Source: Methanobacteriota archaeon (GTDB taxonomy: Archaea; JAADCQ01; Methanopyri; Methanopyrales; Methanopyraceae). Taken from it: 64,000 nucleotides of DNA. Numbering within the stretch: position 1 is the first letter of the stretch; the number at the start of each line of letters is the position of its first letter. The stretch spans positions 1 to 64,000 of the forward strand of contig JAMOPO010000057.1 in assembly GCA_027064425.1 (NCBI GenBank), in the 5' to 3' direction. The notes below the pieces were generated by a model. The model was not told where the DNA came from. It saw only the letters and a list, made by a program, of their open reading frames with translations, and did no database searches. Made by a program: the position numbers and the translations under genes. This document shows, in pieces, positions 25,834 to 59,107 of the stretch.

Positions 25834-25967
25834 GGGTGTCCCCGGGCGTGGGCCCCCCTCTCATCCCGACGCGGTGCGGCGTCGAGGGGGTCCCGCCGGG
25901 GCCTGTGCCGGGGCGCCGTACCGGGCGATCATCGACGGCTGACGCCGACTCACGCCCGTCCCCGGGG
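25834..25967 (-). ncRNA. Two-hairpin box H/ACA guide RNA candidate
   Basis: Each hairpin has lower stem, pocket, upper stem, GA/GAUGA K-turn and ACA 14-15 nt below the upper stem (ACA at 25904-06 and 25837-39). Confidence 0.75.
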
Positions 25968-25978
25968 ATGAGCGTGAC

Positions 25979-26037
25979 GGCCTCAGTCGGCGCCGCACTC
26001 TTCACCGATCAGGGCCGGGCAAGAGTCGTCATCGGCC
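25979..26037 (-). ncRNA. Box C/D guide sRNA candidate
   Basis: GGCC/CCGATGA-CGACTCTTGCCCGGCC-CTGA-TCG-GTGAAGA-GTGCGGCGCCGA-CTGA-GGCC; C box contains the upstream gene's stop codon. Confidence 0.85.
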
Positions 26038-27192
26038 GGGCTTTAAAATGTCTATTCGCCCCTCCTCAGCGGCCGCGGCGGCCTCTCTCATTAGCTTGCG
26101 GGCCAGGTGGGCGGAGGACTCCCGGGCCACCACCCGGTACCGCCTCCCGTTCACCTCGAGCTCGCCCCTCCGGACCCGGACCGCGGGGCAGAACTCCGCG
26201 CAGTACCCGCAGTGGAAGCAGTCCCCGGACCGCACGTCCGAGTACGGGTAGGGGCAGCGCTCCTCCAGGGCGCAGGTGTCGCAGTTCTCGCACCGCGAGG
26301 GATCCCACTCGACCCGCTCCTGCACCCAGACGTCCGAGTACCGGGCCGAGCCGACGCGGCTGCGATCGGAGAGCCGTGCCACCGGCAGCTCCGCGTCCTC
26401 GTGCCGGCGGTCCAGCCACTCGAGCGTCTCCTCCGTGACCGCGATCGCGGAGGCCACGCCCGCGATGTTCTCCGGCCCGGCCGCCGTCCGGTACTCGCCC
26501 ATGTACTTGGGGTCGCACTCGCGGAGGTCCGCGTGGAGGGTCAGGTTCGGGTGGTCGGGGCTGCTCCGGGTCCCGGTTCCGGTGATCACGGCGGGCGCGC
26601 CGCAGAAGAGCACGCGCCGGCCCGGTTGGTGCAGCTCGAGGTTGGGATCGTGCTCCAACGGGTTGTAGCCGCCGCACCCGCTGAAGGAGGCCTCTCCGGG
26701 CCGGAGGGGGCGCGGGGCGAAGATCGTCCGCTCGGGCTCGGAGCCATCGTTGACGAACGCCGTGTAGTTGCGGAAGCAGGTGCGGGTGGAGGCCAGGAGC
26801 GCGCGGTCGAAGTCCTCGGGCCCGACGGTGGCCTCGTGCTCGGTCCCGTCGTCCGCCACGGCCACCACGTGGATCTCCTCGCCCGCCGCGATCCGGCGGA
26901 GCAGCTCGGCCCCGGAGATCCTACCCTTCAGGGTCGCGGGGACCAGGCACTCGACCAGGCCCAGGCGCTCGTTCGGGCAGGGCCCGACCGGGACCCGGAT
27001 CCCCTCAAGCTCGACCTCCCTGAACCGGTGCACCTCGCCCGGGTCGGCCACGCGGAAGGAGAGGATCCCGTAAACGCCGCTCATCAGGCCGACCGTGGCG
27101 CAGGTGACGGCGTCGACGCCGCGGCGCTCGCCCTCGGTCATGTCCCAGAACTCGTCGATGGGGACGACGGTGGGCACGACCGGCCCCCTCAC
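26029..27192 (-). CDS. Methanogenesis marker 16 metalloprotein (DUF39-like plus ferredoxin-like Cys)
   Basis: DAVTCAT.GLMSG, GPCPNERLG, FRNY.AFVN, SFSGCG.YNPLEHDP, GTRSS, C-terminal CxxCxxC..CP, CxxCGxC. Confidence 0.85.
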   Translation of the reverse strand: MRGPVVPTVVPIDEFWDMTEGERRGVDAVTCATVGLMSGVYGILSFRVADPGEVHRFREVELEGIRVPVGPCPNERLGLVECLVPATLKGRISGAELLRRIAAGEEIHVVAVADDGTEHEATVGPEDFDRALLASTRTCFRNYTAFVNDGSEPERTIFAPRPLRPGEASFSGCGGYNPLEHDPNLELHQPGRRVLFCGAPAVITGTGTRSSPDHPNLTLHADLRECDPKYMGEYRTAAGPENIAGVASAIAVTEETLEWLDRRHEDAELPVARLSDRSRVGSARYSDVWVQERVEWDPSRCENCDTCALEERCPYPYSDVRSGDCFHCGYCAEFCPAVRVRRGELEVNGRRYRVVARESSAHLARKLMREAAAAAEEGRIDILKPGR

Positions 27193-35889: not shown

Positions 35890-36030
35890 TAATGTACCCG
35901 GCGGCCAGGTCGCCCGGTCACGGAACGGCGTCACGGCCTACTCCCGGGCGTGACGGGTGGCTGTACCGGGAGCGTGACAGCGGGGTTCATCGCGCGGTGA
36001 ACACCGCCTCACCCCGCCGGGGGCCCCGAC
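35890..36030 (-). ncRNA. Two-hairpin box H/ACA guide RNA candidate
   Basis: Two K-turn hairpins each ending in ACA (35962-64, 35893-95) 14-15 nt below the upper stem; TTATAGAA TATA at 36047-54. Confidence 0.8.
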
Positions 36031-58991: not shown

Positions 58992-59107
58992 TGGTGCCGG
59001 GGCCGGGATTTGAACCCGGGACCTCGGGGTATCCCAGGCCCGTGTCACCCTCACGGGGTCATCGGGCCCTATGAGCCCCGCGCTCTACCAGGCTAAGCTG
59101 CCCCGGC
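58992..59107 (-). tRNA. tRNA-Met(CAU), elongator type, with 39-nt intron (59031-59069) at 37/38; C8; encoded CCA
   Basis: GCCGGGG/CCCCGGC acceptor, CGGGG/CCCCG anticodon stem, TTCAAAT loop; BHB: CUCA pairs with intron UGGG, bulges UA|G and AU|A. Confidence 0.95.

Follow-up and report, generated by a model that had tools for sequence, protein, structure and literature searches.

A conserved cluster of a box C/D guide RNA and a two-hairpin H/ACA RNA in a Methanopyrus-lineage methanogen, probably co-transcribed and mostly separated afterwards

Physical linkage of an archaeal H/ACA guide to a C/D box motif has been described for Pab21 of Pyrococcus abyssi, which, like P. furiosus Pf1, corresponds to the Rfam family snoR9 (RF00065) (PMC3849170) and is seen in vivo both with and without that motif (PMC2377435). 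Here we analyze a locus of comparable design from a Methanopyrus-lineage methanogen, located within the first 64,000 nucleotides (nt) of contig JAMOPO010000057.1 (this whole stretch is called the window). The guide-RNA block occupies the minus strand at 25837-26038, ~200 nt within one intergenic gap, and is a real, conserved guide-RNA cluster made up of a dual-guide C/D small RNA (sRNA) and a two-hairpin H/ACA sRNA; the two are probably co-transcribed and mostly separated afterwards. An initial annotation, made from the letters of the window alone, had proposed a C/D guide and two H/ACA-type hairpins arranged head to tail on one strand and filling the gap. That arrangement was borne out, the minus-strand sequence at 25834-26037 reads as first described, and Pab21, which the annotation named as the known type, is a fair precedent (PMC2377435).

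The likeness to Pab21 lies in the physical linkage and in the predicted targeting of 16S rRNA. In contrast to Pab21, which has one H/ACA hairpin and targets 16S position 891 in P. abyssi, the present locus has two hairpins and different predicted sites, and it shows no sequence or profile similarity to Pab21. In its two kink-turn (K-turn) hairpins, its hinge consisting of only ACA/ANA and its second ACA at the 3' end, it resembles Haloferax volcanii sR-h45 and the single H/ACA sRNA of Nanoarchaeum equitans (PMC7075261, PMC3491384). However, those RNAs come from stand-alone genes and have 23S targets, whereas here a C/D sRNA lies directly upstream, hairpin 1 is without a 5' guide and the predicted H/ACA targets are in 16S rRNA; the N. 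equitans gene also has its own promoter and T-stretch. The atypical guides of Pyrobaculum and Sulfolobus islandicus (sR148, sR563) are likewise K-turn hairpins whose lower stem is weak or has to open for the substrate (PMC11077068, PMC4652768). Unlike the hairpins studied here, they are single, lack the ACA and a lower stem and belong to Crenarchaeota, whereas the Methanopyrus-lineage locus keeps ACA/ANA in six of six genomes and has a lower stem of 6 base pairs (bp) in the clade of the source genome.

The RNA kinds themselves are known, their linkage has the Pyrococcus precedent and the genus has already been reported to contain H/ACA sRNAs. In Methanopyrus kandleri, 126 C/D box and six H/ACA box sRNAs have been described (Su, Tripp and Randau 2013, PMC3695527); the window's locus has the same RNA classes, its source is probably of the same genus and its ortholog is expressed. 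The locus may therefore be one of those six H/ACA sRNAs, and thus already catalogued, although the main text of that report mentions no H/ACA structures or targets and no C/D-H/ACA cluster. Our results do not overturn current understanding; they add a worked example to a small set, since few archaeal H/ACA RNAs have structures, conservation and predicted targets, and they indicate that the linkage of a C/D guide to an H/ACA guide can persist throughout a genus.

The source genome (G000; 1.54 Mb, 57 contigs, 68% G+C) was compared with the other five genomes of its genus (G001 to G005), a genus that stands alone in its family and phylum within the genome collection. Coordinates refer to the window unless a contig is given. 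The block opens with a C/D sRNA in which boxes C, D', C' and D are present in order (cCGAUGA, CUGA, GUGAAGA and CUGA).

25978-26038, minus strand: box C/D sRNA, defined by an Rfam match, its boxes and a 5-bp terminal stem
26038-26034 with 25982-25978, minus strand: terminal stem of 5 bp; three of five pairs change on both sides and 90% of cells are paired
26029-26035, minus strand: box C, cCGAUGA; CCGAUGA is invariant in six of six genomes
26013-26028, minus strand: D' guide spacer, with the core CUCUUGCCCG at 26025-26016
26009-26012, minus strand: box D', CUGA; CCGA in G004
25999-26005, minus strand: box C', GUGAAGA; GUGAUGA or GUGAGGA in relatives
25987-25998, minus strand: D guide spacer, with UGCGGCGCCG at 25997-25988
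25983-25986, minus strand: box D, CUGA; CCGA in three relatives and CGGA in two

The Rfam family sR47 matches 25981-26036 with 41.4 bits, just above its gathering threshold of 40, and sR1 matches with 41.5 bits, below its threshold of 45. For comparison, the C/D sRNAs of M. kandleri are 55-97 nt long (PMC3695527).

The hairpins start 12 nt past the C/D terminal stem in G000 (12-17 nt across the genus). Hairpin 1 has the layout CCGGGG-A-CGGGCG-UGA...GAUGA-U-CGCCCG-GUACGGCG-CCCCGG-C-ACA, and hairpin 2 the layout CCCCGG-CGGGA-CCCCCUC-GA...GAUGA-GAGGGGG-GCCCACGC-CCGGGG-ACA.

25904-25965, minus strand: H/ACA hairpin 1, from its fold and covarying upper stem
25965-25960 with 25913-25908, minus strand: hairpin 1 lower stem
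25958-25953 with 25927-25922, minus strand: hairpin 1 upper stem
25952-25950 (UGA) and 25933-25928 (GAUGAU), minus strand: hairpin 1 K-turn
25921-25914, minus strand: hairpin 1 3' guide, (G)UACGGCG
25906-25904, minus strand: hairpin 1 ACA
25837-25901, minus strand: H/ACA hairpin 2, from its fold and covarying upper stem
25901-25896 with 25845-25840, minus strand: hairpin 2 lower stem
25898-25892, minus strand: hairpin 2 5' guide, CGGCGGG, overlapping the top of the lower stem
25890-25884 with 25860-25854, minus strand: hairpin 2 upper stem
25883-25882 (GA) and 25865-25861 (GAUGA), minus strand: hairpin 2 K-turn
25852-25847, minus strand: hairpin 2 3' guide, CCCACG
25839-25837, minus strand: hairpin 2 ACA

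Both hairpins fold singly as drawn by energy folding, and both follow the rule, already invoked in the initial annotation, that the ACA lies 14-16 nt below the upper stem: the distance is 15 nt in hairpin 1 and 14 nt in hairpin 2 (13 if the closing layer is counted). Above the pocket, hairpin 1 stacks 6 bp, a U.U pair, two G.A pairs and a closing layer, and hairpin 2 stacks 7 bp, two G.A pairs and a closing layer, which gives 10 layers in each case. Of the productive P. abyssi folds, 14 of 15 combine a GA stem of 10 bp with a distance of 14-15 nt to the ACA (PMC4652768).

The two pockets are dissimilar. Hairpin 2, with a 5' strand of 4-7 nt and a 3' strand of 6-8 nt, is a near-canonical two-sided H/ACA unit by its sequence; since its 7-nt 5' guide covers the top three lower-stem pairs, either 4 bp would be used or the stem would open, as has been described for some P. 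abyssi guides (PMC4652768). Hairpin 1, judged in the same way, is an unusual one-sided unit. Its single 5' A pairs with the first 3' nucleotide in two species, which makes it effectively a stem with a 7-8-nt 3' bulge.

A strict descriptor of such hairpins (GA on the 5' side and GAUGA on the 3' side, 7 bp in the upper stem, 5 bp or more in the lower stem, and 13-16 nt to the ACA) found eight sites in the whole of G000, both hairpins included, versus none in each of eight shuffled genomes. A looser descriptor without the K-turn signature found 20 real sites versus 5-16 per shuffled genome (n = 8). G000 also encodes Cbf5 (TruB_N, 65.7 bits, in a 346-amino-acid frame), Gar1 (31.9 bits) and Nop10 (Nop10p, 84.2 bits), all above the Pfam cutoffs.

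The block is kept in all six genomes of the genus (blastn, 73-91% identity), with conservation starting at box C and ending at the second ACA and with flanks that diverge. The invariant parts are the boxes, with the variants listed above, both C/D guides, the K-turn cores (CGAUGA and GAUGAG), the pocket strands and the ACAs; the hairpin 1 ACA never varies, the hairpin 2 ACA is found in five genomes and is AUA in one, and an ACA/ANA stands at 14-15 nt in all six. The apical parts carry a 7-nt deletion in G004 and a 2-nt insertion in G001 and G002. Since these indels are not multiples of three, they argue against coding. Apical length varies as between a K-turn and a kink-loop (K-loop), with the cores unchanged.

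The initial annotation had named a lack of covariation in relatives as a sign against its proposal; covariation is present there: 91% of cells pair on the proposed structure and 8 of 41 pairs change on both sides, while none of 500 shuffles reached either value and slid-partner controls gave 0-3 pairs. The pairs that change on both sides fall in the C/D terminal stem (three), the hairpin 1 upper stem (three, including the closing layer) and the hairpin 2 upper stem (two). Beyond the genus, the only blastn match was a C/D look-alike that no hairpins follow, in one distant genome, and a covariance model of the two hairpins (R1) matched six of six genus genomes and none of 144 other archaeal genomes, under strict filters that may lose weak matches. 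Wider sequence diversity was not found in metagenomes, where three contigs were identical to G003 or G004, and a contig scan with the flanking protein gave two close relatives.

Several observations temper the assignment of these elements to the C/D and H/ACA classes. The lower stems show no covariation, are mismatched in G001, G002 and G004 and have 83% of cells paired; they are 6 bp long in the G000 clade, and both are cut to 3-4 pairs in G001 and G002. In the latter two genomes the 2n G of the hairpin 1 K-turn is also replaced by C or U. Hairpin 1 has only one A (25959) on the 5' side of its pocket, a guide of 0-1 nt, so that the pocket is not a canonical two-sided one. Within the C/D sRNA, the D spacer is 12 nt long, whereas the D' spacer is 16 nt versus the usual 12. 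Among the Rfam H/ACA families (HgcE, HgcF, HgcG and snoR9) only HgcG was listed at the locus, with 10.7 bits versus a gathering threshold of 77, and snoR9 (RF00065) was not among the 14 Rfam matches to the locus at E up to 10. Fold energies are unexceptional for a G+C content of 68% (z = -1.1 and -2.3 for the hairpins and -1.7 for the whole 216 nt), so the case rests on comparison, not on thermodynamics; the comparison comprises six related sequences from about three lineages and thus lends moderate support.

We searched for the targets of the guides in the 16S rRNA of G001 to G004 and the 23S rRNA of G001 and G002. The G000 assembly gave no rRNA matches, so the targets rest on congeners, which detracts from their assignment to the source genome. 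Positions are in G001 numbering unless stated, and the Escherichia coli equivalents, obtained by alignment, are approximate. As a separate observation, the 16S and 23S genes of G001 and G002 are ~65-68 kb apart on opposite strands and do not form one operon.

The D' core CUCUUGCCCG pairs with CGGGCAAGAG in 23S rRNA through 10 Watson-Crick bp in G001 and G002. Within this duplex, 23S G2663 is opposite position 26017, the fifth nucleotide upstream of D'; G2663 is close to E. coli 2464 at the base of helix 89, and GACUCUUGCCCG within this guide is invariant in six of six genomes. Similarly, the D guide UGCGGCGCCG pairs with 16S CGGCGCCGCA through 10 Watson-Crick bp in G001 and G002; here the fifth nucleotide upstream of D (25991) faces C511, close to E. 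coli 540 in helix 18, and UGCGGCGCCGAC is invariant. The target segments are identical in all four available 16S genes. The D' guide should thus direct 2'-O-methylation to 23S G2663 and the D guide to 16S C511.

For the hairpins, a search with the pockets as first drawn found no convincing rRNA site, and the search string given in the initial annotation, GCGUGGGC-UN-UCCCG, is absent from rRNA. Without the pocket-closing A and G, however, CCGUGGG-UC-CCCGCCG is found in 16S rRNA. We used a register in which the nucleotide beside the upper stem stacks as the tenth layer and one nucleotide is trimmed from each side; this 10-layer GA-stem register is that of the best rRNA match for both hairpins, and other G000 hairpins found by the same descriptor have plausible rRNA targets in the same register.

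In this register, hairpin 2 pairs with 16S CCGUGGG-UC-CCCGCCG(A) through 7 bp on the 3' side and 7-8 bp on the 5' side, around U569-C570; the target, U569/U570, aligns with E. coli U598 in helix 21. Its score of 43 compares with 24 for the next best site, and 1 of 300 shuffled guides did as well. Hairpin 2 is therefore a good candidate, on complementarity, for a pseudouridylation guide to 16S helix 21. Set against this, G000 itself has lost one nucleotide of the 3' guide, which leaves a 3' duplex of 6 bp and 13-14 nt to the ACA.

For hairpin 1, the 3' strand pairs with 16S GGUCCGUA-UG-CCC through 8 bp in G001, G002 and G004, and the target, U1185/U1186, aligns with E. coli U1205 in helix 34. 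The strand reads UACGGCGCC or UACGGCACC in the G000 clade and UACGGACCC elsewhere. The G000-clade version still pairs with GGUCCGUA if one C bulges, an A-U pair becoming G-U and the length to the ACA being kept. A target in helix 34 is plausible from this pairing. S. islandicus 16S Psi1162 (Psi, pseudouridine) falls by offset arithmetic at about G001 position 1175, ~10 nt from 1185, which is too coarse to decide equivalence.

The case for this target is weakened at several points. On the 5' side, 3-5 bp would use the G-run of the lower stem and need the stem to melt. The score of 30 exceeds the 16-18 of the next sites, but 8 of 300 shuffled guides did as well, which is modest support. In G000, the contiguous 3' duplex is 5 bp (8 with the bulge) and the U1185 site comes second with a score of 28; the top match there is instead made by the self-complementary 5' strand CCCCGGGG, with 10 bp at 23S position 2637, a pairing that the 5' strands of the other species are unable to form.

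These features invite the alternative that hairpin 1 is not a guide at all but a structural hairpin that binds L7Ae and Cbf5 and aids a two-hairpin ribonucleoprotein (RNP), or else an orphan unit, with the 16S match arising by chance. The one-sided pocket, the modest target support (8 of 300 shuffles) and the differences between clades at two positions of the 3' strand are all consistent with this alternative, as is S. islandicus sR666, a K-turn hairpin without guide strands that is bound by Cbf5 and L7Ae (PMC11077068). Nevertheless, UACGG and the next pairing positions are conserved or compatibly changed (A-U to G-U, with compensated length), and the 10 layers and 14-15 nt to the ACA are the geometry of productive guides. 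A single 3' strand can also suffice: S. islandicus sR148 works with a 3' guide as its only guide strand, and deleting this RNA abolishes both of its sites (PMC11077068), and in vitro 3'-side pairing matters more than 5'-side pairing and by itself gives some activity (PMC7075261). We consider a nonguide role for hairpin 1 somewhat improbable, albeit a serious competitor to a guide function at helix 34.

If the four assignments hold, the cluster offers testable sites in functionally important rRNA (16S helices 18, 21 and 34, and 23S helix 89 at its base), in an organism whose habitat is close to the upper temperature limit of life. An earlier study raised the question of how far "atypical" guides have spread outside Crenarchaeota (PMC11077068), and two features seen here bear on it: hairpin 1 has a pocket on one side only, and the lower stems are eroded in two species.

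Expression was assessed in one congener from four size-fractionated RNA runs of one 2013 study, using contigs rather than raw reads. These were placed on positions 1350-1850 of L004, the ortholog segment in that congener's complete 1.7-Mb genome. The ortholog was found in all four runs, with 57-70% of its sampled words; metatranscriptome runs X5-X12, with a share of 0.04-0.13 of the words, are not counted as evidence. Its C/D part (L004 ~1649-1707) forms its own contigs of 53-59 nt with depths from thousands to ~11,000, and contigs over its H/ACA part (L004 1502-1648) have depths of 59-113. In run X3, the H/ACA contig has a depth of 93-113, compared with 0-17 in the downstream flank and 4.4 in the upstream gene. 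Loose ends in poly-T, which represent A-tails on a minus-strand RNA, occur at L004 1648-1651, the 3' end of the C/D part, and in one of the four runs (X3) at L004 1502, the last A of the second ACA. In G001 and G002, the nucleotides directly after the second ACA are TTTTT, consistent with the end of a transcription unit at this point.

The junction between the two parts is also crossed. In three of the four runs, contigs extend from the H/ACA part to L004 1673, 23 nt into the C/D part, and one contig of run X4 reaches from inside the C/D part to 73 nt upstream of it. A fair reading of these data is that junction-crossing molecules exist, that most C/D RNA is a separate species and that the H/ACA RNA ends at the ACA. 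This pattern suggests one precursor cut into two RNAs, rather than mainly one 200-nt RNA. On the side of caution, no contig in the four runs has 31 nt on both sides of the C/D-H/ACA junction, and the contigs are unreliable for 5' ends or levels; parts of L004 that they do not cover are accordingly not read as absence.

One further X4 contig departs from the reference at L004 ~1628, a point in the 5' strand of hairpin 1, and its next ~30 letters are unlike the locus. These hold a box-C-like GAUGA on the RNA strand and could reflect a chimera or a second junction.

The single ~200-nt RNA with methylation and pseudouridylation modules envisaged in the initial annotation thus stands in part: contigs that cross the junction by 23 nt agree with it, whereas the ~58-nt C/D sRNA is separate and far deeper and the H/ACA RNA ends at its ACA. 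In its strong form, this proposal makes the functional molecule one stable dual-function RNA of ~200 nt that carries a C/D RNP and two H/ACA RNPs and couples 16S methylation to pseudouridylation, in the manner of long-form Pab21 or of a eukaryotic small Cajal body-specific RNA. Module order and spacing are kept in six of six genomes with an invariant linker, three of the four guide elements aim at 16S rRNA, H/ACA contigs run into the C/D part in three of four runs, and Pab21 itself has a long form that exists in vivo alongside a short one (PMC2377435). However, the k-mer depth of C/D-only contigs is two to three orders of magnitude above that of the contig covering the H/ACA part, A-tailed 3' ends lie right after the C/D terminal stem, and the junction lacks a contig with 31 nt on both sides. 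Moreover, most M. kandleri C/D sRNAs are circular, which would exclude a 3' extension (PMC3695527), and a second C/D-H/ACA adjacency in G000 (C15:371381-371531) is found in only three of the five genomes with that hairpin, so that such adjacency comes and goes. A stable dual-function RNA as the working form is accordingly unlikely.

Instead, we think it likely that the gap is transcribed as one RNA and that trimming of this transcript yields two guide RNAs, a C/D and an H/ACA sRNA, which act at the four rRNA sites. In this model, a minus-strand transcript would cover both parts and most likely continue from the mRNA of the upstream HcyBio-family gene, because the stop codon of that gene sits within box C. 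L7Ae, Nop5 and fibrillarin are the expected partners of the C/D sRNA, which has two K-turn motifs, C/D and C'/D'. In each hairpin, L7Ae and Cbf5-Nop10-Gar1 would position the target uridine between the K-turn, 10 stacked layers above the pocket, and the ACA, 14-15 nt below. Hairpin 2 would guide modification of 16S U569 (~E. coli U598) and hairpin 1, through its 3' strand, most likely of 16S U1185 (~U1205), gaining a few extra pairs only if its G-rich lower stem opens. Once the RNPs have assembled, the precursor would be trimmed to an abundant C/D sRNA of ~58 nt and a less abundant H/ACA sRNA of ~135 nt with its 3' end at the second ACA, and some long molecules with both modules may persist as a minor form. 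Protein binding, the modifications, the order of processing and the promoter are presumed throughout this scheme.

The upstream gene (26029-27192; an open reading frame [ORF] of the HcyBio family, Pfam PF01837, 1.4e-51) overlaps the block, and its UGA stop (26031-26029) is the UGA within box C of the C/D sRNA. The overlap of coding sequence and guide RNA is ~10 nt in the G000 clade, whereas the gene of G002 stops 86 nt upstream. The same upstream gene is found in five of six genomes and a different one in G004, and the downstream gene is 1.1 kb farther off in several of the genus genomes. Given that the genes vary on both sides of the block, the RNA block is the conserved unit. Long ORFs also run across the gap on the plus strand. 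It is very improbable that the hairpins are not RNA genes but stabilizing or terminator hairpins in the 3' untranslated region of the upstream gene, or coding sequence: the upstream ORF does end within box C, spurious long ORFs do overlap the region and G+C-rich sequence folds well regardless, but the K-turn cores, ACA boxes and guide strands are invariant while the loops vary by 2 and 7 nt, the block is kept where the upstream gene differs (G004), the RNA has a 3' end at the ACA and a scan for intrinsic terminators found no pattern. A promoter scan of bacterial type, with archaeal promoters outside its scope, found nothing. TTTTAAA at 26047-26041 was considered as a TATA box for the sRNA and rejected, as it lies only 8-14 nt from box C and within coding sequence.

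Between the C/D part and hairpin 1 lies a short conserved linker.

25969-25977, minus strand: linker motif UCACGCUCA; UCACGC is invariant in six of six genomes and duplicated in G004
C15:165183, C15:401162, C15:371459/371444 and C52:73767, RNA strand: other copies of (U)CACGCU(C/G)A by H/ACA loci of G000

CACGCU occurs within 60 nt and on the same strand of six of the eight G000 H/ACA loci, in 7 copies versus 0.41 expected, for a motif chosen post hoc. At the second C/D-H/ACA locus (C15), the motif is not conserved in relatives. The best-scoring C/D target in M. kandleri is the 5' leader of an H/ACA sRNA (PMC3695527). We found no complement of UCACGCUCA in 16S or 23S rRNA and no C/D guide against it in three scans of G000, which covered only 41 candidate C/D loci; a candidate partner at C57:81313 was set aside, since it sits in apparent coding sequence.

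A more elaborate reading would make hairpin 1 a working unit with a canonical scaffold (K-turn, lower stem and ACA) and a guide in its 3' strand only, intermediate between canonical and "atypical" guides and the first such unit outside Crenarchaeota. Further, the UCACGCU leader would act in cis, as a signal specific to the lineage, in the processing or assembly of H/ACA precursors, and a fraction of the RNA would persist as a dual C/D-H/ACA particle acting on 16S rRNA. We regard this combination as speculative and improbable as a whole.

The descriptor scan found about seven further H/ACA loci in G000, and Rfam H/ACA families gave no match to those other seven loci at E up to 0.01. Two of the loci have features in common with the block.

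35893-36030, minus strand: second double-hairpin H/ACA-type RNA, from the descriptor scan and from weak matches of model R1 in relatives
C15:371381-371531, minus strand: H/ACA hairpin (371464-371531) with a C/D sRNA 27 nt after it

In the second double hairpin, hairpin A (35962-36030) has a GA...GAUGA K-turn and the 3' strand UGUCACGCU, and the best match of hairpin B (35893-35958) is 16S U993 in G003 numbering (7 + 4 bp). Model R1 gave weak second matches of 33-36 bits in G002 and G004, that in G002 lying ~10 kb from the ortholog of the block. Because this spacing resembles that in the window, the G002 match is probably the ortholog of the double hairpin at 35893-36030.

At the C15 locus, the C/D sRNA matches snoPyro_CD with 33.6 bits, below the gathering threshold of 45, and the best target of the hairpin is 23S U2695 (9 + 4 bp). 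The hairpin is present in five genomes, whereas its C/D sRNA is found only in G000, G003 and G005. This distribution implies that C/D-H/ACA adjacency arises and decays within the genus, in contrast to the adjacency at 25837-26038, which is kept in six of six genomes.

Two observations concern tRNA genes. C is found at position 8 in 27 of 35 predicted G000 tRNA genes, a genomic signature of C8-to-U8 editing; C-to-U editing of base 8 in 30 tRNA species has been described as a unique mechanism of M. kandleri (PMC3695527). This signature is one ground on which we take the source for a Methanopyrus-lineage archaeon. In addition, a tRNA match of 52.3 bits extends over 113 nt at 58995-59107 on the minus strand of the window and is probably an intron-containing tRNA gene.

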